Positions 23,780 through 48,205 of a stretch of 64,000 nucleotides of DNA are shown one piece after another; within the stretch, counting starts at the first letter, position 1, and every line of letters starts with the position of its first letter. The translations under genes were made by a program, and so were the position numbers. Source of the DNA: an uncultured delta proteobacterium (GTDB lineage Bacteria; Desulfobacterota; WTBG01; CAIYCZ01); assembly GCA_963803975.1 (NCBI GenBank), contig CAWDOY010000017.1, forward strand, positions 649 through 64,648, written 5' to 3'. The notes under the pieces were generated by a model. That model was not told the origin of the DNA. It did not search any database and worked only from the letters and a program-made list of their open reading frames with translations.

Positions 23780-24908
23780 TTAGAGATTTTTTACCGGCAC
23801 AAGCGCCTGATACAGGGAAACATATTGTTCGGTTACCGATTCCAAAGAGAATTTTTCTACCGCAGTTTTTCGAGCTTGCACGCCGAGTGCCTTTGCCAAG
23901 TCTTTATCCTGTAAAATTTTCTTCATCGCCTGATACAGTTGACCCGCATTGTCCGGCTCTACCAGGATGCCGTTGACGCCATCCTGCACCAGGTCAACAG
24001 TGCCGCCGACCCGTGTCGCGACAACCGGGAGGCCGCAGGCCATAGCCTCAAGCAGCACATTGGAGAGCCCTTCGGAGAATGACGGGAGCACAAACAGGGT
24101 GGCCTGCTGCAGATACGGCCTGATATCCGCTGTTTCGCCGCAAAAACGTATCGAATCCGCGCGGCCTGTATCACGGGCAAGCTTTGTCAATTTCTCCCTG
24201 TCAGGCCCGTCGCCGATAATGGCGAGATGGGCTGCGACGCCCGCATCGTTTAGCTGCTTAAATGCCTCAAGCAGGACATGTACGCCCTTCATGCGGTCTA
24301 GCCTTCCGACAAAGACGACAGTTAACGGCCCTTCTGCGCGCGGCAGCGGCTTGAAATAGCTGCTGTCCACGCCGTTCGGTATGCTGCAGCACCTGTTCCG
24401 GCAGAAAGCCCGCCTGCAATGCTTCCCTAGCTGATTGTGAACACACGCAGATGAGCCGGTCGGCCCGGGGGGTCTGGCGCAGCAGAAAGCCTCCACCGAA
24501 AAGGTTTTTCATCATCCTAAAATCACTGATCGGGCCGGTTGCGCCGACTTTTATAATCACCTTTTTTTTGAAAAGTGCTTTCATCAGTATGGCGGCAAGG
24601 GAGTGAAAGCCCTGCAGCAGGTGGCAGTGGATAATATCGTAGCTCCGGCGCTTCTTCAGAAGAAACCACAGGACCGAGAAGAGATACGTGAGCGCAAACC
24701 ATTTTCCCCAGGGAAGGGTCCTGATCGCCCGATAGACCAATACGCCCCGGACTGTTTCATGAGCAGGAAGCCCCTTGAACTTCCTGGTAAGAACGAAAAC
24801 CTGCACGCCGCGCTGTATCAATTGTTCGGCAAGCTGCAGGGCCTGCTGCTCTGCTCCCCCAAGATGGGGATAGAAAAAAGAAATAATTATTAAGACGCGC
24901 GGCTGCAT
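23780..24908 (-). pseudogene. GT4-family glycosyltransferase split by a +1 frameshift near 24385 (N-domain ORF 24908-24267, C-domain ORF 24496-23780)
   Basis: N-half ...FYPHLGGAEQ... ; C-half IPNGVDSSYF...EGLSNVLLEAMACGLPVVATRVGG; frames meet at ...AGFLPEQV / IPNGVD. Confidence 0.6.
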
Positions 24909-25054
24909 TTCAGATCCTTAAGCCTTTGCCTGCTTCTGTTTTACCGAGAAAACAATAACACCGATGACCGCAACAAGCCCGATCAGTTTGCCGGCAAGGC
25001 GCTCTACCTGCATCTCTGCCCCGCTTGCTATGGGCCGGAACTGGTGAATGACCA

Positions 25055-26989
25055 TCAGCACTCGTGGAAGCATAGGCTGCCTGCCGGGGGTGATAATGTT
25101 TCATCGATAAACATGAGGTGCCACAGCTCAAGCATGAGCAGGTTCCAGATCAGGTACTGCCACTGCTCCCCCCGCTGGTGGCGCTGCAGCATCTGCTCAA
25201 CATAGTCTCTTTTGAAATAGCCCCGCTCAAGAGCCCGCTTGCTGAGCAGGGTGTCAAAAGCCATATCCTTCAGCTCGTGGCGAAACCAGTGGTCCAGGGG
25301 AACGCCGAAGCCCATCTTGGGGCGATATATAAGATCGCGCGGCAGGTAGGGCTCAACCGCCTTTTTTAAAATATATTTCCCTTCCCGGCCATCTTTCAGC
25401 TTGAGGTCTGACGGTATCCGGGCCGCGAATTCCATAAACGTGTGGTCAAGAAACGGGGAGCGGGCTTCCAGCGAATAGGCCATGGAGGCAATGTCCACCT
25501 TGGGCATGAGCGTGTCCGGCAGATACAGCCCGAAATCAAGTGACAGGGTGGTATCAAGAAAATCAGCGGCTTCTGCGGCACGGTATTTATCCAGCATGAT
25601 GTCTACTGACAATGCGCGCCCGGTAAGCTTTTTCATCTCGGCAGTATAGAGCCCTCTCTTGTACAGCTCATGAAAATGGGTAATGCGGTAGTAATACAGC
25701 AGGCGCTCCTGATTGAGCGCCAGGAAGCGCCGGGCATTCTTCACCAGCCCGTCCGCCGGGCTCATGAAGGCATACAGAGAGCAGCGCTGTTTCAGCCAGC
25801 GCTTCAGTAAATAGGCCGGGCCGGGCTGAAGCGCATTGTCGCCGGTATTGGTGTAGCGCGGATAGCCGGCAAAGTTTTCATCTCCGCCGTCGCCGTTCAG
25901 TATGACCGTCACGTGCTGCCGCGCCAGCTTGCTCACATAAAAAGTGGGGATTGCGGAGGAATCGGCAAACGGCTCATTGTAGTGCCAGACCAGCTCGGGG
26001 AAGATGGCCTGTGCCTCGGGTTTGACAATAAATTCATGGTGGTCTGTGTGGTAGCGCTCAGCCACCATGCGCGCGTAGGGCAGCTCATTATATTCATCAT
26101 GCTCAAAGCCGATGGAAAACGTTTTGACCGGCTGGTTCATGAGCCCGGCCATCAGGGCGGTGATGATGGAGGAATCTATGCCCCCTGAAAGAAATGCGCC
26201 CAGAGGCACATCGCTCATCAGGCGGACTTTTACTGCTTCGCGCAGGCGCTCAATGATTTCTTCCTGCAGGCCGGCCAGCGCTTTTTCATCCGGCACTGAT
26301 AGTTTATCAGCATAGGACAGCTTCCAGTAGCAGGCTGGCTGTTCACCGCCATTTCTGATCAGCAGGCAGTGGGCCGGGGGAAGTTTTTTGACCCCCTTGA
26401 ATGCGCAATACGGCGCGGGAACGGATTGATAGCTTAAGTAGTGGTGCACTGCTTCAATATCAACCTCCCTGGTGAAGGCAGGGTCCTGAAGAATTGCTTT
26501 GATCTCAGAGGCAAACATGACGCGGTCGGGAAGGTCGGCATAAAACAGCGGTTTCTTTCCCACCCGGTCCCTGGCCAGAAACAGGGTTTTAGCAGTGTCG
26601 TCCCACACGGCAAAGGCAAACATTCCGCGCAAACGCTTCACGCAGGCTGCTCCTTCCTCTTCCCAGAGATGCACAATAACCTCGGTATCAGTGCGGGAGC
26701 GGAACTGGTGGCCCCTGGCGAGGAGGTAGTCTTTTATTTCCGGAAAATTATAAATTTCCCCGTTGAAGGTGACCCATACCGTTTGATTCTCGTTGGGCAT
26801 GGGCTGGTTGCCGAGGGGGCTCAGGTCAATGATTGAAAGGCGGGTGTGCCCGAGGCCGGCATTTTTATTAGTCCAGATCCCGTTATAATCAGGGCCGCGA
26901 TGATTGAGAACGCGGCCCATTTTTCTCAGCAGGTCGGCTTCAACCGTGCGCTCAGGATTCTTATAGACGATTCCATAAATGCCGCACAT
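25055..26989 (-). CDS. asparagine synthase (glutamine-hydrolysing) family amidotransferase, AsnB/WbpS-like
   Basis: MCGIYGIV N-terminal nucleophile Cys, GATase-II domain, SGGIDSS PP-loop; 644 aa; embedded in glycan locus. Confidence 0.85.
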   Translation of the reverse strand: MCGIYGIVYKNPERTVEADLLRKMGRVLNHRGPDYNGIWTNKNAGLGHTRLSIIDLSPLGNQPMPNENQTVWVTFNGEIYNFPEIKDYLLARGHQFRSRTDTEVIVHLWEEEGAACVKRLRGMFAFAVWDDTAKTLFLARDRVGKKPLFYADLPDRVMFASEIKAILQDPAFTREVDIEAVHHYLSYQSVPAPYCAFKGVKKLPPAHCLLIRNGGEQPACYWKLSYADKLSVPDEKALAGLQEEIIERLREAVKVRLMSDVPLGAFLSGGIDSSIITALMAGLMNQPVKTFSIGFEHDEYNELPYARMVAERYHTDHHEFIVKPEAQAIFPELVWHYNEPFADSSAIPTFYVSKLARQHVTVILNGDGGDENFAGYPRYTNTGDNALQPGPAYLLKRWLKQRCSLYAFMSPADGLVKNARRFLALNQERLLYYYRITHFHELYKRGLYTAEMKKLTGRALSVDIMLDKYRAAEAADFLDTTLSLDFGLYLPDTLMPKVDIASMAYSLEARSPFLDHTFMEFAARIPSDLKLKDGREGKYILKKAVEPYLPRDLIYRPKMGFGVPLDHWFRHELKDMAFDTLLSKRALERGYFKRDYVEQMLQRHQRGEQWQYLIWNLLMLELWHLMFIDETLSPPAGSLCFHEC

Positions 26990-27007
26990 AATGATAGATG
27001 TAGTAAC

Positions 27008-27811
27008 CTATGTTCTTTTCTTTTTAAACAGATACTCAATATTTGCTTCGCCGGTTTTGACCTTCATGCGCTCAAGCCCCAGCGTGCCCTCGCAAAAAGC
27101 GCACATCTCCTCCAGCGTCGCCGGCTCATAGGGCCACCCTCCCAGCCAGTCCTTAACATCGGTCCAGAATTCCATGCCCCGGCTCGTTTTATAATTGCTG
27201 ATATACATGATGGACTTCCTGATGCGGCTGGGTGATGCGGTCCTGAAAAATGTGCGCCACACATAGGAAAGCTCCATGAGCTTTTTGCCGGGCCGGCCGG
27301 TGCGATTATATTTTTTCTTAATGTCTGTCCAGTAGGGCGTATCAGGGGTTTTGTCATAGATGGCGATATAAAAAATGCTGCCGGGTTTCAGAAACGTGGC
27401 AGCATTGCTGACTGCCCGCCAGAGATTCCCCGTATGATGAAGCACACCCCATGAATAGACGATATCGGCAGGCTCAAATGCGCGGATAAAATTGTCATCC
27501 AGTATTGAGCCCTGGGCAATCTGCCAGTTCGCCGGGCTTCCGTACATCTGGTGGATCTTTTTTGTGGTGGCAACAGAATAGGGGTCAACATCAAAACTGA
27601 CAATGCGCTGCGCCGCGGATTTAAAGGCCGCCAGGGAGTGAATGCCGCTGCCGCTGCCGATATCCAGGAAATGCTTTCCCTCTAAATCCTTGATCTCCAG
27701 GAAGTTAAGGAGATGCTGCCGCGCTATTTCAATGCGCTCTTCGGAAAAGTTCGCGCTGACGAACTGCTCCCAGTTTTTTCCGAATGAAAACGTTACTTTT
27801 TCTTCTGCCAC
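27008..27811 (-). CDS. class I SAM-dependent methyltransferase
   Basis: FLDIGSGSGIHSLA motif I. Confidence 0.75.
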   Translation of the reverse strand: MAEEKVTFSFGKNWEQFVSANFSEERIEIARQHLLNFLEIKDLEGKHFLDIGSGSGIHSLAAFKSAAQRIVSFDVDPYSVATTKKIHQMYGSPANWQIAQGSILDDNFIRAFEPADIVYSWGVLHHTGNLWRAVSNAATFLKPGSIFYIAIYDKTPDTPYWTDIKKKYNRTGRPGKKLMELSYVWRTFFRTASPSRIRKSIMYISNYKTSRGMEFWTDVKDWLGGWPYEPATLEEMCAFCEGTLGLERMKVKTGEANIEYLFKKKRT

Positions 27812-27986: not shown

Positions 27987-29153
27987 CTACTCCATGGCCC
28001 CGGTAACGTGCTTCACGTAGTGCTGTATAACGGTTCCCAGGGAATAGGTGGTGACCGCGGCCTCGCGCGCCTTGCGCGCAAGCTCCCGGTGAAGCGCACT
28101 ATCAGCCAGCAGCCGCTTGATCGCCGCGGTAAGGGCCGGGACATCGTCCGGCGGAACCAGTATGCCGTGCGCACCGATCCAGTATCCCCCCGGCTCAGGG
28201 CGCTGCTGCTCTGGCAGGCCGATGACATCAGTGATACCCCCCACGCGTGAGGCGACAACAGGCACTCCGCACGCCATTGCTTCAAGCAGAACCAGCGGCA
28301 TCCCTTCGGAATATGACGGCATAACGATCAGATATGAGCGCTGATAATAGGGGACAACAGCGTGCGCATCTGGTATTTCCCCGATAAACGTAATGCGGTC
28401 ATTCAGCCCGCGGGCAAGCACCAGTTCCTCCAGGGAAGACCTCTGTTCACCGCCGCCCACCACAAATGCTTTGAACTCCGGGTTGGTTTGCCGCAACAGT
28501 GTCAGCCCCTCGATAAAGAGCTCAACGCCTTTACCTCTTGTAAGCCTTCCGATATAGCTTATAATCGGGATGTCTTCGTCTTTCAAATGAGCCGCAGGGG
28601 AAAATGTTTCCGTATCGACCGAGTTGGGAATCCGAAAAACTTTTTTCACCGGAAACCCTCGGGCCAGCAGTTCCTCCTCAATTTGCCGGCTGATTGCAAT
28701 AATCCCGTCAGCCCGGCAGGCACACCTGATGGTGAGCGCTCCCCACGAAAGCTGTGCGGCTTTCAAGAGGTCTCCGGTTCCCCCCCCTGATTCCAAGCGT
28801 ACCAGGACCCTCTTTCCGGTTAAAAACCTGAAAAGAACCGCTGGGGCAATATAGAGGTAGAGCCCGAAACAGCACATGACATCAAAGTTTTTTCGGTACC
28901 GGAAAAGAAGAATAAGAACCGAAAGCATGTAGCTCAGCTCATACCAGTGCCAGCCGCGTATTTTTCGGTACACCGGAACGCCATCGATAAGCTCGTAGGC
29001 GGGGAGGTCTTCCCGGTATTGCGTCAACACAGAGACCTCATGTCCCGTCTTTTTAAGCTGTTTTGCAATCTTGCGGCACTCCTGCTCCGCCCCCCCGATA
29101 GAAGGATAAAACTGGGCGATAATCATCATTATTTTTGGTTTGGCTGTATCCAC
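27987..29153 (-). CDS. glycosyltransferase family 4 (GT-B)
   Basis: FYPSIGGAEQ N-term; EGMPLVLLEAMACGVPVVASRVGG C-term. Confidence 0.85.
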   Translation of the reverse strand: MDTAKPKIMMIIAQFYPSIGGAEQECRKIAKQLKKTGHEVSVLTQYREDLPAYELIDGVPVYRKIRGWHWYELSYMLSVLILLFRYRKNFDVMCCFGLYLYIAPAVLFRFLTGKRVLVRLESGGGTGDLLKAAQLSWGALTIRCACRADGIIAISRQIEEELLARGFPVKKVFRIPNSVDTETFSPAAHLKDEDIPIISYIGRLTRGKGVELFIEGLTLLRQTNPEFKAFVVGGGEQRSSLEELVLARGLNDRITFIGEIPDAHAVVPYYQRSYLIVMPSYSEGMPLVLLEAMACGVPVVASRVGGITDVIGLPEQQRPEPGGYWIGAHGILVPPDDVPALTAAIKRLLADSALHRELARKAREAAVTTYSLGTVIQHYVKHVTGAME

Positions 29154-29186: not shown

Positions 29187-30233
29187 TTACTGCTGTACAA
29201 GACCGTTGTAGAGATTCCGCATTTTTTCTGCTATCACCTGCCAGTCAAACTGCTGCGCCACACTCCGTGCTCCCCGGGACATCTCTTCCAGACGCTGTTT
29301 GTCGGTGATAAGGGCAAGTACTGCATCCGCCATCCCCTGAACATCATCCGGGTCAACTAAAACAGCACACGTTCTATTTACATACAGGCCAAGCCCGCCC
29401 ACCCGGGTTGCTACGACAGGCAGGCCGCAGGCCATCGCCTCGAGAACGGCGTTATTTGCGGTGCAGTCATGCATCGGCATGAGAAGCACATCGGCAGCGC
29501 CATACAGGCCAAGCAGCTCATCTTCGGAAATTGATGAATAAAGGCTGACATTGCGCAGGCCTGCGAAATGAGCAAACTGGTCCTTAAAGGTTATGATGGA
29601 AAAAAAGATGTTTTGTTCCTGGCTGCAGATGTTCTCGATCACTGCCCGCAGCATCTTAAAATTGCGCAGGTGAACGCCCACAAAAATACAGCGCCGGGGC
29701 CGGCCTGCAGTAGCTGCTTTTGGATGAAAGAATTCCGTATCAACCCCGTGCGGGATGAGGTGCACCTTGCCGGGGTCAATAATAGTTTTAAACAGTTCTT
29801 CCTGATTCGGGGCCACAATAACAGCAGCGTCAAGCGTCTTGAGGTGACGCCTTCCACGGGTTATGTTTAGAAATTTTTCCGGCGGCATGTGAAATGACGC
29901 GACTATTTTATTGCCCTTCCGCGGATTCAGGTAGCCCGCGTAATGAAACGAGTCTTCACCGTACAAAAAGTGAAAAACCTGGCCGGACGCATATAAAAAG
30001 TCCGGGATTTGCTGCAGCTCCATCTTCAGGGCTGTGGAGTTGTACCAGTTACCGGCGGTTCGTCGCAGGTTAGCAAGCACCCACTCCGGTAGCCGGTCGA
30101 GCACCCGGCGGAAACGGTTAGGCTGAACGACCCGGCTTTCAATATAGCGTGTCAGCTGATCATAGCCGGAGTGAGTAGCATGGTGTGACACCCGGTTAAC
30201 TATGTAGCGTATTGCGGGTGCAGCCTGTTTCAT
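29187..30233 (-). CDS. glycosyltransferase family 4 (GT-B)
   Basis: C-terminal LEAMACGLPVVATRVGG motif region. Confidence 0.8.
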   Translation of the reverse strand: MKQAAPAIRYIVNRVSHHATHSGYDQLTRYIESRVVQPNRFRRVLDRLPEWVLANLRRTAGNWYNSTALKMELQQIPDFLYASGQVFHFLYGEDSFHYAGYLNPRKGNKIVASFHMPPEKFLNITRGRRHLKTLDAAVIVAPNQEELFKTIIDPGKVHLIPHGVDTEFFHPKAATAGRPRRCIFVGVHLRNFKMLRAVIENICSQEQNIFFSIITFKDQFAHFAGLRNVSLYSSISEDELLGLYGAADVLLMPMHDCTANNAVLEAMACGLPVVATRVGGLGLYVNRTCAVLVDPDDVQGMADAVLALITDKQRLEEMSRGARSVAQQFDWQVIAEKMRNLYNGLVQQ

Positions 30234-31153
30234 TTCTGGTAGAGCCTCAGCCTTTGTTTCAGTTTTCCTGCGATAAAAAATAGTGTGAACAGGTCCTCTG
30301 CACTGAGCCTGGTTTCCTTTACAAAAATATGCCGGATTGACCCTTTGAGCGTCCCTGCCAGATCGCGCATTTCTCTACGCCAGGCATGATGTTGTCGCAC
30401 ACCCGTTTTCTGCTCTACCATAACATTTGATTTGCCCTGGGCATAGGCTCGTTTCAGCAGGTACTTTTTACTCATCCGTTCCGGAAGAACCGTGTGGTGC
30501 ACAACAGCCTGCGGAGCATAGTACACCTGTTTCCCTCTCTGCTCTATCAGGCGGCACAGATACACTTCTTCGCTCGAGAGCAGGCGCGCGCGGGTTCGGC
30601 CAAGCGCCTCATTAAATCCGCCAAGTTCCAGAAACAGTTGCCTGGGGACCGAAAAATTCCCTCCAAACGGTGTTTTCGGATAGCGAAGCGCCTGTATTTC
30701 GTCTCCATAGTCAAGCGCCCCGTAGCTTTGCTCAAGATTAGGTGAGAGCCAGGCGGGTTTCTCAACAGGCCACGTTAGTTTGATTTTTCCGCCCACAACA
30801 CCGGCATCAGGAAATTGCCGGTAAACGCTCATAAGACCCTGCAGCCAGCCCTTATCTGCTACAGCATCATCATCCGTGAACGCTACAATTGAGCCACGGG
30901 CTTCCTGCGCACCACGGTTCCGGGCAAACGAAAGCCCCTGCTTTAATTCTTTTACATAGCGGATGACCGGCTCAGACCTGTTGCAGTATGATGCCGCCAG
31001 TTCCGGGGTCTTGTCATGGGAATTATTATCGACGATGATAATTTCAAATGAATCTGCCGGCAGGTCCTGACATATCAGACTGTCAAGAGCCGCTTTGAGG
31101 TATGCACATCTATTATAGGCAGCTATGACTACCGAGATTGTGGTTGGGGCCAT
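30230..31153 (-). CDS. glycosyltransferase family 2
   Basis: ISVVIAAYNRCAYLKAALDSL...IIVDNNSHD..; start chosen at internal ATG (MAPTTISVV). Confidence 0.75.
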   Translation of the reverse strand: MAPTTISVVIAAYNRCAYLKAALDSLICQDLPADSFEIIIVDNNSHDKTPELAASYCNRSEPVIRYVKELKQGLSFARNRGAQEARGSIVAFTDDDAVADKGWLQGLMSVYRQFPDAGVVGGKIKLTWPVEKPAWLSPNLEQSYGALDYGDEIQALRYPKTPFGGNFSVPRQLFLELGGFNEALGRTRARLLSSEEVYLCRLIEQRGKQVYYAPQAVVHHTVLPERMSKKYLLKRAYAQGKSNVMVEQKTGVRQHHAWRREMRDLAGTLKGSIRHIFVKETRLSAEDLFTLFFIAGKLKQRLRLYQK

Positions 31154-31325
31154 AGGGTAACTCAATGAATTATGAATATGTGCGGCAGGAGCCGTTTCCT
31201 GGCTGCATGAATTTTCTCGGACAGCTTTTTCCCGAGGAACGATTTTATATACGGCACAATCAGCCGTACGGGCACCGTCGGAAAGGCGAACCTGCATGCG
31301 CTGCTGACACATCTTCGAAACTGTT

Positions 31326-32312
31326 TCATATTACCCTGGTGATAATATTCCCAGGCAAGCTGAAGGTACTGAGCTGTATATGCTTTTTTTTATCCTGCCT
31401 GTTATGGCACTGATCTCCGCTCGTCCAGAACTGACTGAACACGGCAAACACGGCACGCTCTTTTTGCTGCGCGTCAGCTCCATGGATGAATAGTTTCTGT
31501 GTCGGACCGTGGGTCAGGGCCAGATGTAACAGCCGTTTGAAGGAATCGTGATCTCCGTTTCGGTAGTAGTTCCATGCCAGATTGACGCAATTGTTACTGT
31601 AGCTTCTGTGCATGAGGTTCCCCTCAAGCTGGTTTTCCTGCCAGTGATCCTCTAAAATCCTCATCACTGCCTGCTCCATCGCCCGGCCGTTTTGAGATAA
31701 ACCCTGGTCATGAGTAACGTATTGAACGAGCGGATCTTCAACAAAGTCAACCTTGTATTTTCTGCTTATGCGAATCCAATATTCATAATCTTCTGCCGGC
31801 GAATATCTGCCCTGGAAAAAACCAATCTGTTCTACACACTCTCTTTTGATGACAACGGAAGATGCTCCCATTTGATTCCCAAGCACAAGATCATAATAAA
31901 TCATGCCCTTACAGGCCGGCTTAACCTGCCCTAATATTTCTCCCTGCATATCAAGAGTTGTGTATCCACAATAGACTAACCCGACATCAGTATCCGACTG
32001 AAATATGTTCATCTGCGCATCAAGTTTAGCCGGCATCCAGGTGTCATCACTATCTAAAAAAGCAATATACTCGCCCCGCGACTCTTGTATGCCTGCGTTG
32101 CGTGCACCCGCCACTCCCCTGTTTTCCTGGTAGAAGTATCGTATCTTATCCCGGTATTTTTGAACCAGCAGTTCCTGGGTATTATCACTGCTTCCATCAT
32201 CAATGACAATTATTTCTATATCCTTATACGTTTGATTAAGAGCACTATCTATGGCTTTGCAAACCATAAATTTTCTATTGAAGGTAGGGATTATAATACT
32301 GACTATTGACAT
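31326..32312 (-). CDS. glycosyltransferase family 2
   Basis: VSIIIPTFNRKFMVCKAIDSALNQTYKDIEIIVIDDGSSDNT ... FLDSDD. Confidence 0.8.
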   Translation of the reverse strand: MSIVSIIIPTFNRKFMVCKAIDSALNQTYKDIEIIVIDDGSSDNTQELLVQKYRDKIRYFYQENRGVAGARNAGIQESRGEYIAFLDSDDTWMPAKLDAQMNIFQSDTDVGLVYCGYTTLDMQGEILGQVKPACKGMIYYDLVLGNQMGASSVVIKRECVEQIGFFQGRYSPAEDYEYWIRISRKYKVDFVEDPLVQYVTHDQGLSQNGRAMEQAVMRILEDHWQENQLEGNLMHRSYSNNCVNLAWNYYRNGDHDSFKRLLHLALTHGPTQKLFIHGADAQQKERAVFAVFSQFWTSGDQCHNRQDKKKHIQLSTFSLPGNIITRVI

Positions 32313-40020: not shown

Positions 40021-41455
40021 TTATATCTTTTCTGATTTTTCCCTTGTCCTGTAAAAATTCAAAATAGGCCTGATTGCCGACCCACATGCTGACTGCAGCC
40101 CCCGGAGGTATATCTCCTGTTTAATATCTCGAGAAACTTGCTCATTGACCACATCATACCAGTATGTGGTCTCCATGCCAAGGGCATAAGCGCCCCTGAC
40201 TCCGCCGACAAGCTCATTGTAGTAACAGAGCTCATAGGGGTGGATGCGCATCGTTTGATAGGCCGGGTAGAGGGTAAAAATAGCCAGTGCAGCCGGGATG
40301 AGAACTTTTTTTATTTTCATCGCTGGCATCATTCGTTCGGTGAGAAAATAAAACCCTGCGCCGGAAAAATAAGCCATGAAAGGAAACAGGTAAAAAAATT
40401 GCCGCGTGCCGTCATGCACCGGTGCATTGGGCAGCATGGTAAGGAAGAGCGGGAACAGGCAGTTGATAAGCATTAAATTATTAAATCGACGGTTTGCGGT
40501 ATCGCGATAAAGAGTCAGCAGCCCCAGCATAAAAGTAACAAGAGTGGTCACTGGTACGGTAATTGCGGTCATGATCCATGCATAGGTCCAGGGCGGGGAA
40601 AAAGAATAGGTTTTGCCCAGGAAAAAGGTGGGAATCCGGATGGAATCTTCCCTGTGACAGGCTGATCTGTACAAAGTTTACAATCTTTCCTATGGGATCA
40701 TGCCACCATCCCGGGTTTACCAGAAGGGCCAGCAGCAGCGCCAGCGGCAGTGCGATAAGTAAATTACTTAGGCCCCGCCGTTCCTTATATAAAAGGGCCC
40801 ATACCAGGAGGGGCACCGGGAGTAACAGCCCGGTAAATTTTGTGGCAATGGCACATCCCCACAGGATGCCAAACAGTATGATACCTGAGCGACGAGTTAA
40901 TCCTCTCCAAAATGCGAAGACTGCCAGCAACCAGAATGTCGTGAGCGGAATTTCTGTCGCTGCAATATGGGCATGGCCAAAAAACCTTGGTAAAAACAGC
41001 AGGGACATACTGCCGCACAGCCCTGCCAGTTTGCCATAGCGGCTGTTTAAGATAAAAAAGACAGTAAGCAGCAGTACGGTGCTTAAAAAGGCCGGGGCGC
41101 ACCGATAGGCCACCAATTCTCCACAATAGCCTTTAAGACAGGCTAAGGAAATCCCGGCAAGAATCCTGGCGAGGGGGGGATGGGGATTGTGTGAAATATC
41201 CCACAGCCAATACTGGTCGGTAATAGTCCGGGAAAGAATGGCGCCGGGTGTGCCATGAAACAAAGCAGTACCAAGCGCACGACTCCATGCAATAATCAGC
41301 TCTGAAGACTTGAAATAATATACTTCATCCCAGGTCCACCCTATATCATGAGCGGTCAGGATAATAACAAACAGGGAGAAGATGCCAATTACCAGGCCCA
41401 GGAATCCTGCCATTGCTATACTATGGGTATGCTGCGGGGCAGTGTTTTTTTCCAT
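40021..41455 (-). pseudogene. GT-C fold ArnT/PMT-like (GT83/GT39-type) membrane glycosyltransferase split by frameshift near 40650 (ORFs 41455-40481 and 40674-40021)
   Basis: N-part WDEVYYF...HPPLARIL; C-part IPTFFLGKTYSFSPPWTYAWIMTAITVP; frames meet at ...ISLSQG/RIPTFF. Confidence 0.55.
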
Positions 41456-41482: not shown

Positions 41483-43108
41483 TTATATGATAGATTTTCT
41501 CCGGAATACAAACAATACATTTTTTGACCGCGGTACATAGTTGTTTACTTCATGGTCCCACCGGTAAATGGTTTGATCATCTTGTATATCTGCTATGCCC
41601 ACTAATGTATATGCCTTAATATACTCTGTCGCCCACTTAAATATCAGTTTCTCTGAATTATCGCGGTTAAGCCAGGAAGCGGACACATTGACAAAAACTA
41701 TATACGCGGGTTTTGCATTCTCGATTTCTGCTATCATTTCCTTTTGCATTCTAAGCGCAAATTGATGATCTTCCATCAGCCCATAGGTGTAAATATAACC
41801 GGTAGCGGCGGGCCTTTTTGCATAAAAATAGATTTGCGGTTCGGAACCAAGCACCGCAATCCGATCTGTGGGAGCGGTATGGTTTCTGATGTACTGTGCT
41901 ATGTGCATTGATTCAGGAAATGGATTTGCCCCGTATGTCAGTCTGCATATTTCATATGGGCTGAGCTCAAATAAAAAACCCCGCTGCAGAAATAAGCCAT
42001 GCAGCAAAACAGCCAGAAATAAAATGGTTGTTACCTGCCTGAGGTGCGGCCGCCCGCTGAATTTTACGGCGAAACGCTGGAAGGCCGCCACGGCGATTCC
42101 GATTGATAGCGATGCTGCAGGAAGCAGGAGCACAAAATAGTGCGAACGGAAGAACAGCCCGGAACTTACCGCAAGAAATGAACAGGTCAAAAATCCTGTC
42201 ATAAAAAAGAGCTGTTTTTTTGCTTCAGCATCGCACCGGATCGCGATTAATCCCATCCCTGCAATCGCCCAGAGCAGAAAAGAACCGCCGGTTATGTTTG
42301 AAAATTCGTTGCGAAAAAGCGTCAAACCGATAGAAAAAGGAACCTGGGCTCCATAGGCGGCGGCATAGGTAACCGCCCAGAACCAGAATTTTTCAAAAGT
42401 ACCTGTTGCATAGGCAATGATACAGGTTAACCCGAAGGGAAGAAGCACTGCGGCTATAAAAAGGCTGGACGTCAGGACCCGATATCGCAGGGTATGGCGG
42501 GCAGTGCGCAGGTTGCGCGCGAGGTACAATAAGGCAAAGACGATAAAAAAAATACCGGGCTGCTTCACTAAAAATGCAAATCCTAACAACAGGCCGCTGA
42601 AAAAAAAGCAAATTAATTTTTCAGCTTTCAGAGCCCGGATCAGCAAAAGGATACCGCCCAGGGAAAATAAAAGCACAAAGTGAGTGGCGTGCGCAGCAGC
42701 TCCCAGCACGGTCTGACTGATAGACAGAATTGCAAAGGCAGCGCTTGCCGTTAAAGCTGCATACGAATCATAAAGACCCTTCGTCAGCAGGAAAACCAGA
42801 ACAATTGTTGCACTGTTTACCAGCAGCAATCCCAGATGTATGCCCTGCACGGTTTGACCCAACCCTGCCATTATCACGGCATATGCTAAATAAGCACCCG
42901 GTAATTTCATATTGTATGATATCAAATATGGCGGTATGCCTTTGAGTATAAGCTGCCCCATATAGGCAAACTCACCCTCATCGCGCTCAAGAGGGATGCT
43001 GAGGAGCCTTGAGCGAATTACACCGGCGCATACGATTATGAGTATGAGAATCGCCCAGGCAAAATATCGGGAATAGGTGCGCGGCTTATTTTCAGACAGG
43101 ACTTCCAT
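41483..43108 (-). CDS. GT-C fold ArnT/PMT-like (GT83/GT39-type) membrane glycosyltransferase
   Basis: LERDEGEFAYMGQLILKGIPPYLISYNMKLPGAYLAY (DE..KPP-like motifs), ~11 TM then periplasmic C-domain; 541 aa. Confidence 0.7.
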   Translation of the reverse strand: MEVLSENKPRTYSRYFAWAILILIIVCAGVIRSRLLSIPLERDEGEFAYMGQLILKGIPPYLISYNMKLPGAYLAYAVIMAGLGQTVQGIHLGLLLVNSATIVLVFLLTKGLYDSYAALTASAAFAILSISQTVLGAAAHATHFVLLFSLGGILLLIRALKAEKLICFFFSGLLLGFAFLVKQPGIFFIVFALLYLARNLRTARHTLRYRVLTSSLFIAAVLLPFGLTCIIAYATGTFEKFWFWAVTYAAAYGAQVPFSIGLTLFRNEFSNITGGSFLLWAIAGMGLIAIRCDAEAKKQLFFMTGFLTCSFLAVSSGLFFRSHYFVLLLPAASLSIGIAVAAFQRFAVKFSGRPHLRQVTTILFLAVLLHGLFLQRGFLFELSPYEICRLTYGANPFPESMHIAQYIRNHTAPTDRIAVLGSEPQIYFYAKRPAATGYIYTYGLMEDHQFALRMQKEMIAEIENAKPAYIVFVNVSASWLNRDNSEKLIFKWATEYIKAYTLVGIADIQDDQTIYRWDHEVNNYVPRSKNVLFVFRRKSII

Positions 43109-45613: not shown

Positions 45614-45625
45614 AGGGGGGTTATG

Positions 45626-46786
45626 TCAGGTTAAGCTTCTATACAACAAAATGTAGCGTTCGGCGACGGTGTCTAAATTAAAATGCTCTGTTACCGTTTT
45701 CTGTGCTGTAGCGCCCAGTTTGCGAGCTTTTTCTGGGTGGGATATCAAATCTAAAATCGCGCGGGTTAGATGCCCTTCGTCATCCCGGTCAACCAAAAGT
45801 CCGCTGATATCGTGCTCAATAAGTTCCCTATTCCCGGAAACTCTCGTCGCAATGACCGGCAGCGCACACGCCATAGCTTCAAGAACTGAATTTGACATGC
45901 CCTCATGTAATGAGGGCATAACAAAAATATCGGCAATGTTCAGAAACACGGTCACATCCGTAACTCCCGGGACCAGGTGCACTCGGTCTTCCAGGTGGTT
46001 TTGGACGATCAGTTTCCGTATCCTGGACCGCTCAGGGCCATTACCGACAATATACAGTTTAAAGGGGATAGAGCGCGGAGTGAGCCTGGAACATGCGCGG
46101 ATAAGAAAATCCACCCCCTTCTCGCGGGCAAGTCGTCCCGTATACAACAGTATTGTTTCATCATTGACTCCAATTTCCTTTCGTCGTGCCTTCCGGTCAG
46201 ATGACGGTTTGAACACAGCACGATCAACTCCATTGGGAATATGAACGATTGCCTGCTGGTCATACCCTATGGTGCCAAGCTCGCGCTTCATCTCCCTGTT
46301 TAAAATCACTGTCCGTGACGCAAGCCGGCACAGAGCAAGAAAAACCCGCCCCCAGGGCGAGCGCTTGTGCCGGTTGATATCGCCCCCCCTGCCGCTTCCG
46401 GCTAAATTGAGAATGGTCGGCTTTTTGAAAAGTTTCCCGGCAAGCATTGCCAGTGCCGAGCTGTATCCCACCTGAAATGCATGAATCATATCAAAACTGG
46501 CACGGCGCTTATAAAGATGGCTCCACAGAAAACACAAAAAAATAACTCCGCCAATTATTTTAATGCGCGGTGAGGGAAGCCTGCAGACAGGAACCCCTTG
46601 TATCACTTCCTGCCGTGGCCATGAGCGGTAAAATCTGCTGGTAATAATTTCGACCTTGATTCCTCTTTGCACGAGGACAGAAGCAAGGTTCAGGGTCTGC
46701 TTCTCCCGCCCGCCGATAAAAGGATGGAAGTATCTGATGACGAAAATAATGTTAAGCGATTTTTGGCCGTTTGAACGAGTATCCAA
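45626..46786 (-). CDS. glycosyltransferase family 4 (GT-B)
   Basis: FHPFIGGREKQ; HIPNGVD; EGMSNSVLEAMACALPVIATRVSG. Confidence 0.85.
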   Translation of the reverse strand: MDTRSNGQKSLNIIFVIRYFHPFIGGREKQTLNLASVLVQRGIKVEIITSRFYRSWPRQEVIQGVPVCRLPSPRIKIIGGVIFLCFLWSHLYKRRASFDMIHAFQVGYSSALAMLAGKLFKKPTILNLAGSGRGGDINRHKRSPWGRVFLALCRLASRTVILNREMKRELGTIGYDQQAIVHIPNGVDRAVFKPSSDRKARRKEIGVNDETILLYTGRLAREKGVDFLIRACSRLTPRSIPFKLYIVGNGPERSRIRKLIVQNHLEDRVHLVPGVTDVTVFLNIADIFVMPSLHEGMSNSVLEAMACALPVIATRVSGNRELIEHDISGLLVDRDDEGHLTRAILDLISHPEKARKLGATAQKTVTEHFNLDTVAERYILLYRSLT

Positions 46787-46921
46787 GAGCCTTTACACCC
46801 TTTCTGCGCAAGCCTTGATCTGACAACAATCTACTGGGTTGCGGTCCTGTTCACGGCGATAATTATTCCCATCAATGCCCAGAAAGCAGGAGAAACGGAG
46901 ACCACGCTGAAAATAAAGCAG

Positions 46922-48205
46922 TCATTTAGCAGATATCCGAAGACATGCTGCTATAAACCCGCAGTAGATTATCTTCCGGGACGGATTTTGCTCAGCCCTC
47001 ATGGACTTAACCAGCAACGCAAGGAAGGTCGCAATAATTGTCAGATAGGCAAAAAGGCCGATCAATCCCTGACTAATCGCCATGTCCAGATAATTATTGT
47101 GGGCTCTGTCTATAAGGCCTGAGCACTTGAACCTGCGGGCATACTCAAGATTAAATTTTTCCATGGCTATTGCGTGGGTATCAGGGCCGTAGCCCAGAAG
47201 CGGTCGCTCCTTGATCAGTGAAATGGCCATGTTCCACAGATAGAGACGGGCACTGACATCCCCCGTGCCCGGATCAAGAATCCTTTCTATTTTGCTGATT
47301 ACCGTAGGGGTAACCTTGCCATCCGCAACAGGTTTTTTGAGCAGCGACTGGGCTTCCCAGGACATGGCAACAGCAATCAATATCCCGGTTATAATAAACA
47401 GTTCTTTCTGCTTGCTCCATGCTATTTTTCCCCGCAACAGCATGGCAAGCAGCATAACGCTGCAGGCAAAACTGAACCAGCTGGCCCGGGTGAACGTCAG
47501 AATCAGGGCACAAAATGAGATTGCACATCCTGTTAAAAGGAGGTATTTTTCTCTCCGGCGGACAGCCGCGGCATAATATACTATATAAAGCGGCAAAATG
47601 AGAACAAGAAATTTGCCCAGAAAATTCGGGTTGCCGATGGTGCTTCCCGGACGATTTTCAACACCACGCAGGAGCGGAATAAAATGTTCTGTCGGATTAA
47701 AACCGAGATACTGGATTATAGCGTACAGTGAAACAAGAAACGCAGTGACAAGCAGTCCCTTTATCAGGTTATGCGCCTGTTTTTCTGTTTCAACCATAGA
47801 AGCAAAGACAAATGTGAGGGCGCCATATGAAAGAATAGTAAAAATACCCTCTTCCCTGAACATATCACCATGGATACTGAGTTTAGGATTGATTGAAGCC
47901 CAAGCGGATAAAATACTCGCAATGCCATAGGCAATGAGAGGAATGGTGAGAAGGTTACCCTTGATTGCCGGAGGCTTACGCAGAACAATCGCCCGCGCTA
48001 CTGCGGCTATACACAAAACAGCTAACAGAGCATAAACTGAGTCAATTTTAGGCTTGTACCAGTAGTCAAACGCAAAGGGATTGATTATAAGAGGAACAAC
48101 GGCAAAAAGAAAAAACAGACATATGCTTATTATCCGGTCGATAATCAGACCAGCGGATATGCCTGTCAGCGATTCACCTGCAAACCTTTTTTTCATACAA
48201 AACAT
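46922..48205 (-). CDS. Wzy_C-superfamily (O-antigen ligase/polymerase-like) membrane protein; positionally TfpO/PilO-like candidate pilin O-oligosaccharyltransferase
   Basis: ~10-12 TM; RAHNNYLDMAISQGLIGLFAYL Wzy_C signature; 95 bp downstream of pilin gene on same strand. Confidence 0.6.
   Translation of the reverse strand: MFCMKKRFAGESLTGISAGLIIDRIISICLFFLFAVVPLIINPFAFDYWYKPKIDSVYALLAVLCIAAVARAIVLRKPPAIKGNLLTIPLIAYGIASILSAWASINPKLSIHGDMFREEGIFTILSYGALTFVFASMVETEKQAHNLIKGLLVTAFLVSLYAIIQYLGFNPTEHFIPLLRGVENRPGSTIGNPNFLGKFLVLILPLYIVYYAAAVRRREKYLLLTGCAISFCALILTFTRASWFSFACSVMLLAMLLRGKIAWSKQKELFIITGILIAVAMSWEAQSLLKKPVADGKVTPTVISKIERILDPGTGDVSARLYLWNMAISLIKERPLLGYGPDTHAIAMEKFNLEYARRFKCSGLIDRAHNNYLDMAISQGLIGLFAYLTIIATFLALLVKSMRAEQNPSRKIIYCGFIAACLRISAK

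Follow-up and report, generated by a model that had tools for sequence, protein, structure and literature searches.

The 24-kb block of glycan genes in the window (the whole 64,000-nucleotide stretch of DNA analysed) belongs to a type IV pilin locus of an uncultured Desulfobacterota bacterium, of which it makes up the downstream part; the pilus subunit is therefore most likely its glycosylation target. On the same ground, a free-standing polysaccharide pathway is an unlikely reading of the block. Judging from sequence, we lean towards regarding the locus as a pilin O-glycosylation island with a TfpO/TfpM-like oligosaccharyltransferase and GT-C enzymes. The minus-strand order is pilR, pilS, a PMT/TMTC-type GT-C with a periplasmic TPR domain, pilA, a Wzy_C gene (~455 aa), GT4, YfhO, PMT_2, PMT_2, Wzm, Wzt (with cap-binding domain), methyltransferase, ferredoxin/FrhB/pyruvyl-transferase fusion, KpsC/S-like, GT2, GT2, GT4, GT4, methyltransferase, AsnB, GT4 and three tRNAs (Table 1). 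Every family listed in an earlier note on this DNA lies where that note placed it, on the minus strand (Pfam). Its description of an ABC-transporter-dependent locus unusually rich in GT-C enzymes also stands: Wzt has a cap-binding-type C-terminal domain, and there are four GT-C genes (PMT/TMTC-like with TPR, YfhO and two PMT_2) plus one Wzy_C. The interval that it delimited, 23780-48205, stops one gene short, as directly upstream lie pilA, then a fifth GT-C-type gene (49066-51196), then pilS/pilR.

Table 1. Features of the pilin locus, in minus-strand order
Feature	Position	Strand	Evidence
pilR, sigma-54-dependent response regulator	53032-54453	-	Pfam Response_reg, Sigma54_activat (239 bits), HTH_8
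pilS, sensor kinase	51296-53008	-	Pfam 6TM_PilS, PAS, HisKA, HATPase_c
PMT/TMTC-type GT-C with C-terminal TPR domain, 709 aa intact	49066-51196	-	TPR domain, homology, motifs, AF2 fold
Sigma-54 -24/-12-like element TGGCAT-N5-TTGCG	48933-48948	-	~165 nt upstream of pilA ATG
pilA, type IV major pilin, 155 aa	48301-48768	-	Pfam N_methyl; NCBIfam prepilin domain
Hairpin + T-run, terminator-like	48235-48277	-	Sequence reading (AAGGCAGAGGCTTT...AAAGCATCTGCCTTTTTT)
Wzy_C-family enzyme, 454-457 aa intact	46831-48205 (window ORF 46922-48205)	-	Pfam Wzy_C, 75 bits; ~10 TM segments
GT4d glycosyltransferase	45626-46786	-	Pfam Glycos_transf_1 138 bits, Glyco_transf_4
YfhO-type GT-C, 806 aa	43148-45613	-	Pfam YfhO 92.3 bits (cutoff 28.5); multi-TM
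PMT2b, PMT_2 (ArnT/GT83-like) GT-C, 541 aa	41483-43108	-	Pfam PMT_2 39.4 bits (cutoff 26.1); ~11 TM
PMT2a, second PMT_2 GT-C, 550 aa intact	39800-41455, end approximate (window ORF 40481-41455)	-	Pfam PMT_2 50.8 bits
Wzm, ABC-2 permease	38773-39639	-	Pfam ABC2_membrane 50 bits; ~6 TM segments
Wzt, ATPase with C-terminal Wzt_C	37572-38768 (ORF to 38828)	-	Pfam ABC_tran, Wzt_C 46.4 bits (cutoff 30.4)
SAM methyltransferase, overlaps wzt stop	36652-37593	-	Pfam Methyltransf_11/23
Fer4+FrhB+PS_pyruv_trans fusion, 895 aa	33980-36667	-	Pfam Fer4, FrhB_FdhB_N/C, PS_pyruv_trans 98 bits
Capsule_synth (KpsS/KpsC-like)	32429-33790	-	Pfam Capsule_synth 41.7 bits (cutoff 20), weak
GT2b, TuaG/EpsD-like, soluble, 383 aa in L029	31162-32312, end approximate (window ORF 31326-32312)	-	Profile matches
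GT2a, AglG/EpsD/HpsE-like, soluble, 307 aa	30230-31153 from L029 Met (ORF to 31312)	-	Profile matches
GT4c	29187-30233	-	Pfam Glyco_trans_1_4 69 bits
GT4b	27987-29153	-	Pfam Glycos_transf_1 138 bits
MT1, SAM methyltransferase	27008-27811	-	Pfam Methyltransf_23/11/12
AsnB-type glutamine amidotransferase	25055-26989	-	Pfam Asn_synthase 353 bits
GT4a, split in window, 375 aa after frame repair	23780-24908	-	Pfam, GT4 family
tRNA-Arg(TCT), tRNA-His(GTG), tRNA-Arg(TCG) cluster	23444-23736	-	Island boundary

The order of pilA, Wzy_C (and GT4) is strictly conserved. Wzy_C directly follows pilA in 21/21 independent related loci, with zero exceptions (L numbers denote these loci and the other assemblies compared). 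Sixteen of these are Desulfobacterota genome loci found with Wzy_C as seed (38-63% identity; pilA directly upstream in 16/16), one was found with a TMTC-like homologue as seed and likewise has pilA followed by Wzy_C, and four were found with the pilin as seed (56-64% identity; Wzy_C then GT4 in 4/4). A GT4 gene comes after Wzy_C in 17 of the 21 (directly, as with GT4d, in 12/16 genome loci, in L019 and in 4/4 pilin-seeded loci). A pilin target is also favoured by the short distance between pilA and the Wzy_C gene (95 nt from end to start), by the TMTC-like gene being located between pilS and pilA in the window and also in 8/21 relatives, and by YfhO lying downstream of pilA-Wzy_C-GT4 in six relatives (L001, L002, L006, L014, L016 and L031); in L033, YfhO is upstream of pilA. 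The expectation that the GT-C set would be linked to the exporter in relatives fails in part, as the genes do not form a fixed set there: YfhO and the TMTC-like gene go with pilA, PMT2a has in three loci a homologue that is encoded upstream of pyrC on the other strand, and PMT2b is absent from 16/16 distinct related loci compared and present in near-identical assemblies of the same population.

Near-identical genomes have undergone cassette replacement at this position. The DNA of L004 is 94.7% identical to the window from pilS to pyrR, and identity drops to 65-72% in the stretch that starts inside the TMTC-like gene and takes in pilA, Wzy_C, GT4 and YfhO. The cassette proteins are 55-60% identical versus 93-99% for flanking genes (99% for PilR), which again favours the pilin as target. 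In a sister strain (L029) the tRNA cluster serves as an integration hot spot, with a 7.9-kb SNF2/AbiE/AEP element sitting between tRNA-Arg(TCT) and tRNA-His. The sigma-54-like element upstream of pilA is suggestive by its position only, and the pattern is not enriched across the window (24 matches versus 42 expected).

The window contains at least eight frameshifts that stem from assembly errors. GT4a is split by an extra base at 24383 (single ORF in the L003 homologue), and an extra base at 46942 removes the last TM helix of Wzy_C; in L024-L026 and L028 that protein is complete (454 aa). The TMTC-like frame is broken by an extra base at 51012 (intact, 709 aa, in L022-L026), and the GT2b C-terminus is shifted in an A-run. 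PMT2a is broken by four single-base shifts (40654, 40140, 40115 and ~39985); removal of three bases gives a 493-aa ORF, and it is one 550-aa gene in L023, L025, L026 and L028 and one ORF in L001 and L006. Short-read contigs with an identical pilin have all genes intact in the pyrR-to-wzt block.

The Wzy_C enzyme is a candidate pilin O-oligosaccharyltransferase by its size, which resembles that of TfpO (440-470 aa) and TfpM (420-440 aa), whose substrates are type IV pilins or pilin-like proteins (PMC9829042) and whose glycosylation site is a C-terminal Ser/Thr. The best PDB match of the family profile is 9rmk, “Oligosaccharyltransferase” (E=2.9e-8), with WaaL 7tpg close behind (E=5.2e-7), and the His of the DRAHNNY motif aligns with the HN motif of both. 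The PilA leader has the cleavage context |FTLIELM (alignment of 17 orthologues), and 116/119 pilin homologues carry Ser/Thr among the last four residues, as part of a conserved PSGIxK[YFWQ][TS] C-terminal tail, as would suit an acceptor.

Modelling shows that the TPR protein has a GT-C fold: in the AF2 model of its N-terminal domain (pLDDT 82.6), the best 29 Foldseek matches are all GT-C, among them AglB, Pmt4, ArnT, STT3 and PglB. Homologues carry the name protein O-mannosyltransferase, a match to spider Tmtc3 spans 87% of the query, and the frame-repaired protein matches Pfam PMT (26.8 bits, cutoff 22.7). The invariant FVWDD, YRP, HP and KE motifs of the family match the TMTC motifs described in PMC7801869. 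TfpW is a pilA-linked GT-C that arabinosylates Pseudomonas pilin, and the TPR-bearing GT-C upstream of pilA has the same architecture. The ArnT-like and YfhO-like assignments proposed previously hold in profile searches, with PMT_2 and YfhO above Pfam cutoffs; PMT2a has a TWDE acidic motif after TM1.

Wzt has as its best PDB match the Aquifex Wzt with carbohydrate-binding domain (8dku/7k2t, 213 bits), and the methyltransferase at 36652-37593 is a candidate chain-terminating capping enzyme by analogy with WbdD/WsaE. In the fusion protein, a 2x[4Fe-4S] ferredoxin is joined to an FrhB-like flavoprotein and to a polysaccharide pyruvyl transferase, for which the NCBIfam CsaB-like model scores 119 bits and so stays below its cutoff. 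The Capsule_synth protein, which matches PDB KpsC over residues 327-397 only (E=1.5e-4), is possibly a ulosonic-acid/Kdo transferase, and AsnB, which scores 496 bits with NCBIfam asn_synth_AEB (above cutoff) and 652 bits with the XrtA/PEP-CTERM amidotransferase model (under the cutoff of 817), is a candidate for uronic-acid amidation. The suggestion that a GT2 might be the polyprenyl-phosphate sugar synthase fails, as neither is of ArnC/GtrB/CsbB type: both score best against elongating GT2s (e.g. TuaG, AglG, EpsD), only GT2b matches the ArnC model (31.6 bits, cutoff 529), and neither has C-terminal TM segments, including intact 383-aa GT2b (maximum KD19 1.31). Initiator, Wzx and nucleotide-sugar genes are, as reported, absent among the large ORFs across the entire window. 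ABC-dependent O-polysaccharide loci normally lack a WecA/WbaP-type initiator or Wzx, as in E. coli O8/O9a, where wecA is located elsewhere; their absence is not a sign of an unusual pathway.

Several observations weigh against pilin glycosylation. Synteny inside one lineage can be inertia, and the pyrC-pilR pair, which has no functional link, is just as conserved. PilA and Wzy_C pairwise identities do not co-vary (Spearman rho -0.01; 17 loci, window included), the hairpin and T-run stand between the two genes, Ser/Thr is the final residue in only 46/119 pilins (the conserved Ser/Thr being 1-4 residues from the end), and the Wzy_C profile resembles WaaL nearly as closely as it does the O-oligosaccharyltransferase. 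Neither a polyprenyl-phosphate sugar synthase nor a GtrA-type flippase that could serve the GT-C enzymes is encoded in the window.

Further points against pilin glycosylation concern the exporter. In Geobacter, a pilA-adjacent ABC-dependent cluster is described as making an extracellular anchoring polysaccharide; the Wzt_C domain is of the glycan-cap-binding type and implies a capped polymer, whereas pilin glycans known so far are short and TfpO moves only 3-6 sugars. Of 11 related loci long enough to be informative, only 3 have Wzm/Wzt at 10 kb or less from pilA. Conversely, in L001 and L016 the exporter directly follows pilA-Wzy_C-GT4-YfhO in one same-strand run, and S-layer slg clusters, in which the target gene is accompanied by Wzm/Wzt, the Wzy_C transferase WsaB/WsfB, a TPR protein, a methyl cap and a homologue of AsnB (PMC2943079), are a precedent for ABC-dependent protein O-glycosylation. 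Of the two targets proposed earlier, proteins or a pre-formed glycan, the evidence favours proteins. That the ABC-exported glycan is the donor for the Wzy_C enzyme is a tentative and rather doubtful proposal.

Under pilin glycosylation, undecaprenyl phosphate would be primed by a phosphoglycosyltransferase encoded elsewhere, and the glycan would be assembled at the cytoplasmic face by the soluble GT4/GT2 enzymes, modified by methylation, pyruvylation (or carboxyethylation) and amidation, and capped at its non-reducing end. The Wzt C-terminal domain would recognise the cap for export of the Und-PP-glycan via Wzm/Wzt, and in the periplasm the Wzy_C enzyme would move the Und-PP-linked glycan en bloc onto Ser/Thr in the conserved PilA C-terminal tail. 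The TMTC-like TPR protein, YfhO and PMT_2 enzymes may use undecaprenyl-phosphate sugars to attach single sugars to the pilin or its glycan; here we infer the roles of the decorating enzymes and likewise the GT-C donors. Pilin glycosylation is already known as a type of system, and what is new is the combination of parts found here.

The genes of the glycan block and its surroundings were assigned by profile searches, and their positions are collected in the table below. The gene list of the earlier note was reproduced almost exactly, with every gene in it on the minus strand; asparagine synthase is the sole specific equivalog matched in NCBIfam. Its calls of YfhO-like and ArnT-like proteins survive these searches, with one Pfam match to YfhO (92.3 bits against a cutoff of 28.5, residues 101-661, in a protein with about 13 hydrophobic segments) and two to PMT_2, and the phosphoglycosyltransferase, Wzx and nucleotide-sugar genes that it had reported as absent are likewise not found in Pfam scans of the window's large ORFs. 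The interpretation built on that list, of a large ABC-dependent glycan locus rich in GT-C enzymes with a GT2 protein as their possible polyprenyl-phosphate sugar synthase, holds in part: the inventory stands, the pilin context upstream of the block had been missed, and the synthase assignment fails. The sigma-54-like pattern found 5' of pilA shows no enrichment in the window, its position near pilA alone being of note. Membership of the PEP-CTERM/XrtA-associated exopolysaccharide loci was considered and rejected, the AsnB, GT4 'stp2' and 'PEP_O_lig_1' models all scoring under their curated cutoffs.

Features of the pilin-glycan region and its neighbours in the window, with the extra bases that break reading frames
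Feature	Position	Strand	Remarks
PIN-domain gene	19101-19496	minus	just past S1-domain gene
HTH_3 gene	19969-20334	minus	about 470 nt upstream of PIN-domain gene; just past S1-domain gene
Repeat protein	21758-22806	minus	signal peptide; GFIYSGGxYT motif; weak DUF3466; gene split over three frames
Three tRNA genes	23444-23736		far end of the block
Four GT4 and two GT2 glycosyltransferases, AsnB-type amidotransferase, two SAM methyltransferases		minus	profile search
GT4a	23780-24908	minus	extra base at 24383
GT2a	30230-31153	minus	
GT2b	31162-32312	minus	extra base at about 31330 (C-terminus)
Capsule_synth (KpsS/C-like) protein	32429-33790	minus	match weak but above threshold
Ferredoxin, FrhB-like and pyruvyl transferase fusion	33980-36667	minus	895 aa
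Methyltransferase	36652-37593	minus	overlaps wzt stop
Wzm; Wzt with Wzt_C domain; two PMT_2 (ArnT-like); YfhO; Wzy_C		minus	profile search
PMT_2a	39800-41455	minus	extra bases at 40654, 40140, 40115 and about 39985
PMT_2b	41483-43108	minus	
Wzy_C gene		minus	extra base at 46942
pilA, type IV pilin	48301-48768		N_methyl domain; leader ending .../FTLIELM; 95 nt from Wzy_C gene
Sigma-54-like -24/-12 element			5' of pilA
TMTC-like gene	49066-51196		709-aa membrane and TPR protein; upstream of pilA; extra base at 51012
pilS (6TM_PilS domain), pilR (sigma-54 activator), then pyrC-pyrB-pyrR			upstream of pilA, after the TMTC-like gene
LarA-like gene	57914-58876		off the island; truncated

The Wzy_C gene follows pilA in the same order in all 21 independent related loci. 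Its product matches Pfam Wzy_C with 74.6-74.8 bits (cutoff 31.7), has about ten hydrophobic segments, and is 457 aa long after repair of the frame, or 454 aa in L024-L026 and L028, which are near-identical assemblies of the same population. It is likened to the pilin glycosylation enzymes TfpO (PilO; Pseudomonas aeruginosa 1244 and Acinetobacter) and TfpM (Moraxellaceae) by domain, size and gene position, and belongs to another phylum, that of the uncultured Desulfobacterota. The tfpO gene lies directly downstream of pilA, and the gene here is likewise 3' of the pilin gene; further points of likeness are a Ser/Thr at or near the pilin C-terminus and a conserved His in an HN motif. The invariant H369 of the family, in the motif DRAHNNY, pairs with the HN motif of PDB entries 9rmk and 7tpg in the family profile alignment. 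In size, the membrane enzymes TfpO (440-470 aa) and TfpM (420-440 aa) are set apart from PglL (550-600 aa) and PglS (520-550 aa) (PMC9829042 Table 2), and the protein of the window falls in the joint 420-470 aa range of the first two, whose substrates are type IV pilins or pilin-like proteins modified at a C-terminal Ser/Thr (PMC9829042). When the family profile is compared with the PDB, the 'Oligosaccharyltransferase' 9rmk (E=2.9e-8, positions 132-413) comes slightly ahead of the O-antigen ligase WaaL 7tpg (E=5.2e-7, positions 214-395), a difference that does not strongly discriminate between the enzyme classes; the single sequence gave no match in the same database.

The tail of the pilin is conserved as PSGIxK[YFWQ][TS] followed by 0-3 residues, and the pilin of the window ends in ...KYTTS. 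A Ser or Thr stands within the last four residues in 116 of 119 pilin homologues and is terminal in 46 of the 119. In contrast to the site of TfpO and TfpM, the conserved Thr/Ser falls 1-4 residues from the C-terminus and is not always the last residue.

Related loci were collected by seeding with the Wzy_C enzyme, the TMTC-like protein and the pilin. Wzy_C homologues found in this way come only from metagenome-assembled genomes of uncultured Desulfobacterota or 'delta proteobacterium', and the order pyrC-pilR-pilS-(TMTC-like)-pilA-Wzy_C is found in all 16 of the Wzy_C-seeded loci (L001-L016, 38-63% identity). A GT4 gene comes next in 12 of the 16 and YfhO then in five, the row continuing as YfhO-PMT_2-Wzm-Wzt in L001 and as YfhO-Wzm-Wzt in L016. 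Genes for AsnB, methyltransferase, FrhB-pyruvyl transferase and other GT4 proteins are scattered among these loci, often on the opposite strand, and PMT_2b has no counterpart in any of the 16. Seeding with the TMTC-like protein gave a homologue of 39% identity with the same pilA arrangement, and all four pilin-seeded homologues (56-64% identity) are followed by Wzy_C, GT4, and then YfhO or a radical-SAM/SPASM gene. The seeding results thus define pilA-Wzy_C-GT4 as the conserved unit. YfhO and the TMTC-like GT-C enzyme are its frequent satellites; the gene of the latter separates pilS from pilA in the window, as it does in eight of the 21 relatives. The genes for the ABC exporter and for the polymer form an extension that varies from locus to locus. 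The linkage of GT-C enzymes to an ABC exporter, on which the earlier note had rested its interpretation, is seen in relatives only in part: YfhO and the TMTC-like protein often accompany the triad, but Wzm/Wzt is found within 10 kb in only three of 11 informative loci. Wzy_C homologues of the candidate phyla radiation (25-27% identity) have no pilin motif nearby and TMTC-like homologues at 30-32% identity have no pilin neighbour, so the association with pilin is limited to the closer Desulfobacterota subfamilies.

Several genes of the relatives differ from those of the window. The radical-SAM/SPASM gene stands directly after pilA-Wzy_C-GT4 in L001 (12525-13763), in the pilin-seeded loci L032 (7030-8343) and L033 (7277-8497) and on a fourth contig (3500-4624), and a methyltransferase of about 400 aa follows the triad in L008, L016 and the TMTC-like-seeded locus L019, with a Trm112p-like zinc-ribbon in L008 and L016; neither gene occurs in the window. 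In L033 (1-3775), YfhO and a 655-aa protein with no Pfam match lie directly upstream of pilA, at the place that the TMTC-like gene holds in the window.

Exchange of the cassette is seen in L004, a relative whose DNA is 94.7% identical to the window from pilS to pyrR and 65-72% identical through pilA, Wzy_C, GT4 and YfhO (proteins 93-99% in the flank versus 55-60% in the cassette). The recombination breakpoint falls in the 5' part of the TMTC-like gene, where window positions 50740-51212 and L004 positions 6980-7451 are 80% identical. Since the allele of the window recurs in seven other assemblies at 99.2-99.5% identity, there are two cassette alleles on a 95% identical backbone, much as in the pilin groups of Pseudomonas or in O-antigen loci.

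At its other end the island borders on a tRNA cluster that is a hot spot of integration. In L029, a 99.7% identical strain, a 7.9-kb element (in the region 13254-21406) lies between tRNA-Arg(TCT) and tRNA-His, which are 57 nt apart in the window; it carries a SNF2-family helicase, an AbiEi/AbiEii toxin-antitoxin pair, an AEP-type primase and helicase fragments. No tRNA genes are found inside the 10-kb flanks of L001-L016. Beyond the cluster, the gene for the repeat protein is missing in L029, where the S1-domain gene directly follows the tRNAs, and the PIN-domain and HTH_3 genes are possible toxin-antitoxin components.

At least eight frame breaks occur in at least five glycosylation genes of the window, namely those for the TMTC-like protein, Wzy_C, PMT_2a (four breaks within this one gene), GT2b and GT4a, and removal of the extra bases gives full-length ORFs. 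This number could be read as an island in decay, or as phase-variable switching, but such a reading is highly improbable. Eight public contigs carry exactly the pilin sequence of the window, and assemblies that share it (99.2-99.5% identity) lack the breaks. In the two short-read contigs, L025 (JGI) and L026 (k141 assembly), which span pyrR to wzt, all genes are intact (709, 155, 454, 386, 806, 541, 550 and 288 aa), whereas the 'contig_N' (long-read-style) assemblies are each broken in different genes, pilS in L027 included. The window differs from L025 and L026 by 12-13 one-base gaps per 19.4 kb, the six sites that were checked base by base are outside simple repeats, and the LarA-like gene, which is not part of the island, is shortened as well, to 320 aa from the 428 aa of L022/L023. 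Intact short-read contigs and differing breaks elsewhere mark the window as an error-containing assembly, and its frameshifts are assembly errors. The population thus has working copies of the genes checked in the short-read contigs; GT4a and the C-terminus of GT2b lie outside the short-read span, and for these the evidence of an intact frame comes from L029 and the L003 homologue. A methylation-motif artefact (GCAG^C context at two sites) was set aside once the errors proved assembly-specific. With about 0.6 single-base indels per kb, apparent pseudogenes in this window are not to be trusted.

The 709-aa membrane and TPR protein is predicted to be the fifth polyprenyl-dependent glycosyltransferase of the locus. 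Its homologues include ones named protein O-mannosyltransferase, and an alignment with spider Tmtc3 spans 87% of the query. After repair, the N-terminal domain matches Pfam PMT with 26.8 bits (cutoff 22.7), whereas the frameshifted ORF gives no match; TMTC_DUF1736 is matched in just three of 15 distant family members, and the domain profile finds no match in the PDB. In the family D33, D34, H127, P128 and K186 are invariant and Y66, R67, P68 and E187 near-invariant, within the motifs FVWDD, HP, K(E) and YRP, and all TMTC-type motif residues are retained in the repaired protein of the window. The published TMTC motifs are DD in the first external loop, SHKSYRP, and KE(T/Q), whose Lys binds the donor phosphate, and uncharacterised full-length TMTC homologues have been noted in Deltaproteobacteria (PMC7801869). 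An AF2 model was made from P0121, which is 88% identical to the protein of the window. The full-length model matched TPR proteins only in Foldseek, and the N-terminal domain was therefore modelled separately (pLDDT 82.6); its top 29 PDB matches are all GT-C enzymes, among them AglB, Pmt4, ArnT, STT3, PglB, Pmt1/2, AftD, EmbB and ALG3, with a best TMq of 0.47-0.59. In the model, about 11 TM helices are followed by the TPR domain (TPR_1, 178 bits), a superhelix that spans residues 404-708, and the odd number of helices would place this domain on the non-cytoplasmic side.

Two known kinds of protein are comparable. Eukaryotic TMTC1-4 and their prokaryotic homologues share the GT-C domain of about 11 TM helices followed by TPR, the motifs DD, (SHKS)YRP and KE(T/Q), and ArnT, PMT and STT3 as the nearest solved folds. 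The acceptors of TMTC proteins are cadherins; we know of no function or acceptor for any bacterial member. TfpW, the pilin arabinosyltransferase of P. aeruginosa group IV (Pa5196/PA7), is likewise a multi-TM GT-C protein with DD(x) in periplasmic loop 1, a C-terminal TPR and pilA as neighbour. The gene described here differs from it in being 5' rather than 3' of pilA and in belonging by sequence to the PMT/TMTC clan; the exact Emb-type motif Yx6PFx7P is absent and only approximated, the nearest stretch being YYLKVLFFPVNLTVAP, and no D-Araf genes of the DprE1/DprE2/UbiA type are found in the window's scanned ORFs. Since the proline motif and the DprE genes are missing, the protein resembles TfpW in architecture and context and is not assigned to its family.

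All parts of an exporter, that is an ABC-2 permease, the Wzt nucleotide-binding domain and Wzt_C, are present. In E. coli O9a and related systems it is the C-terminal domain of Wzt that binds the polymer, at its capped non-reducing end, and ABC-dependent loci normally have neither an initiating transferase nor Wzx. The methyltransferase that overlaps the wzt stop and the nearby KpsC/S-like protein are candidate capping enzymes by context, neither having a match to a specific capping family. Wzm with a Wzt_C-bearing Wzt, an adjacent methyltransferase, a KpsC/GT99-like candidate capping enzyme, an initiator encoded elsewhere and no Wzx are likewise features of the O-polysaccharide pathways of E. 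coli O8/O9a, Raoultella terrigena/K. pneumoniae O12 and Aquifex; the locus differs from these in being attached to pilA, not to an LPS locus, and in its four interleaved GT-C genes. From TfpO it differs in its donor, single Wzx/Wzy O-units there and here a likely ABC-dependent pathway with a cap-binding Wzt. For ABC-dependent protein O-glycosylation the S-layer slg clusters of Geobacillus stearothermophilus NRS 2004/3a and Paenibacillus alvei (WsaB/WsfB) are a precedent (PMC2943079). In these the target gene also lies beside Wzm/Wzt and a Wzy_C O-oligosaccharyltransferase, with a TPR protein, a terminal methyl cap predicted to be read by Wzt and, in P. alvei, an AsnB homologue, but they are Gram-positive, have an S-layer acceptor, carry their own WsaP/WsfP and rml genes (absent here) and have no PMT/YfhO-type GT-C. 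As a separate observation, the 895-aa fusion carries two 4Fe-4S motifs and has a full-length homologue, 52% identical, in L015; speculatively, a redox module beside an enolpyruvyl/pyruvyl transferase could give a reduced (carboxyethyl or lactyl) substituent instead of a pyruvate ketal.

GT-C enzymes of the YfhO and ArnT types work at the outer face of the membrane, with polyprenyl-phosphate sugars as donors. The suggestion that one of the GT2 proteins is the ArnC/CsbB-type synthase of these sugars is contradicted by the searches: GT2b reaches 31.6 bits on the ArnC model, with a cutoff of 529, and GT2a has no match. Nor does either have a hydrophobic segment at threshold, the 383-aa form of GT2b included; both are soluble and resemble chain-building enzymes. 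As neither is a polyprenyl-phosphate sugar synthase, the donors of the four GT-C enzymes must come from elsewhere. The locus thus shares YfhO and ArnT (PMT_2) family GT-C enzymes with the three-component systems GtrA/GtrB/GtrC, ArnC/ArnT and CsbB/YfhO but lacks, within the window, their GT2 synthase with C-terminal TM helices and their small flippase. A fusion of this missing type, GtrA_DPMS_TM with GT2, occurs in L021 (1135-2280), near a TMTC-like homologue of 30% identity that is not linked to pilin.

We consider it somewhat probable that the locus is a pilin O-glycosylation island, in which the TfpO/TfpM-like Wzy_C enzyme would move an Und-PP-linked glycan onto the pilin tail and the TMTC-like, YfhO and PMT_2 GT-C enzymes would attach sugars from Und-P donors. 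It is rather doubtful, if conceivable, that the glycan exported by Wzm/Wzt, probably a polymer, is the donor for Wzy_C; in its favour, the locus has no exporter other than Wzm/Wzt, whose genes directly adjoin the core in L001 and L016; against it stand the short length of known pilin glycans and the lack of conservation of the exporter. A less probable alternative is that two separate modules lie side by side: a pilin core (TMTC-like, pilA, Wzy_C, GT4, YfhO) and, beginning with PMT_2 or Wzm and ending with the last GT4, an independent ABC-dependent surface polysaccharide, Xap- or capsule-like and exported on a lipid carrier, not on pilin. Consistent with this are a conservation that stops at the triad and YfhO or the TMTC-like gene, the variable exporter, AsnB, methyltransferase, FrhB-pyruvyl transferase and other GT4 genes, on the opposite strand in L003, L006, L009 and L015, and the mosaic GC content, 0.50-0.56 at 24-31 kb (the AsnB/GT4/GT2 part) versus 0.43-0.48 at 32-48 kb (the pilA-proximal part), with flanks of 0.47-0.53. 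From the Wzt_C domain and the KpsC/S-like protein one would expect the polymer to be capped or lipid-linked, and the xap cluster of Geobacter sulfurreducens (GSU1498-1508) requires its own ABC ATPase to make polysaccharide. However, no outer-membrane export genes (OPX/PCP, KpsD/E-like) are present in the window; there is also no other flippase in it for the Wzy_C substrate, which leaves Wzm/Wzt as the sole candidate exporter, and this exporter shares a strand run with the pilin core in L001 and L016. The S-layer systems, moreover, are an example of both working jointly. Like the window, Xap (xapD being GSU1501) and pilGHI of Myxococcus xanthus combine an ABC-2-type exporter and glycan genes near a pilin gene, a likeness that is drawn from the literature and consists, for Xap, of the pilA-adjacent position and the ABC exporter; from the gene numbering we take GSU1498-1508 to lie directly after the pilA genes. 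In the descriptions consulted, which mention no Wzy_C or GT-C component for either, Xap is an exopolysaccharide that anchors cytochromes and PilGHI is required for pilus biogenesis.

A plain ABC-dependent LPS O-antigen locus, with Wzy_C as a WaaL that joins the polymer to lipid A-core and pilA beside it by accident, is improbable, and so is the corresponding role of PMT_2 and YfhO as periplasmic modifiers of lipid A, core or O-antigen. Wzy_C is the domain of WaaL, and the family profile does match WaaL 7tpg, but its best PDB match is, slightly, the O-oligosaccharyltransferase. Wzm/Wzt with Wzt_C is the architecture of E. coli O8/O9a and PMT_2 is the ArnT family, yet no LPS core (heptosyl- or Kdo-transferase) genes are found among the window's scanned ORFs, and the adjoining GT-C enzyme, of the protein O-mannosyltransferase clan, has a TPR protein-interaction domain. 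Hypervariable cassettes are typical of O-antigen loci too, and the pairwise identities of PilA and Wzy_C do not co-vary in a mirror tree (Spearman rho -0.01, 17 loci with the window included); against this, the constant neighbour of Wzy_C is pilA, invariably so in 21 loci, whereas conservation does not extend to the exporter and polymer genes. We also think it unlikely that one pilin is served by two routes coded on either side of it. In the one, en bloc, Wzy_C with cap-reading Wzm/Wzt would give the pilin a length-controlled, methylated, pyruvylated and amidated polymer; in the other, stepwise, the TMTC/PMT-type GT-C enzyme, its TPR domain binding pilin, would act together with YfhO and the ArnT-like enzymes.

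The locus, if read as a pilin O-glycosylation island, combines known kinds of system in a new way; it is no new kind. Pilin glycosylation is known chiefly from a few pathogens (Pseudomonas, Neisseria, Acinetobacter). What is new is that the TfpO-like and TfpW-like classes, which belong to separate pilin groups in Pseudomonas, are joined around one pilin, together with GT-C enzymes of the YfhO and ArnT types and with a glycan pathway that depends on an ABC exporter. The compact Wzy_C transferase is a candidate for glycoengineering and might accept ABC-exported polymers, and pilin is offered as a candidate acceptor for bacterial TMTC/PMT proteins with TPR. Were the two-route reading true, prokaryotic TMTC homologues and a Gram-negative YfhO would for the first time have an acceptor and a function, and it would suggest that pilA-linked ABC exporters of 'deltaproteobacteria' such as Geobacter Xap and Myxococcus PilGHI belong to pilin or pilus glycosylation; in any case the locus may bear on the older puzzle of why such exporters lie beside pilA in these genera. 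For the organisms themselves, it suggests a conserved and diversifying glycosylation of pilin in the widespread uncultured Desulfobacterota of anaerobic sediments.
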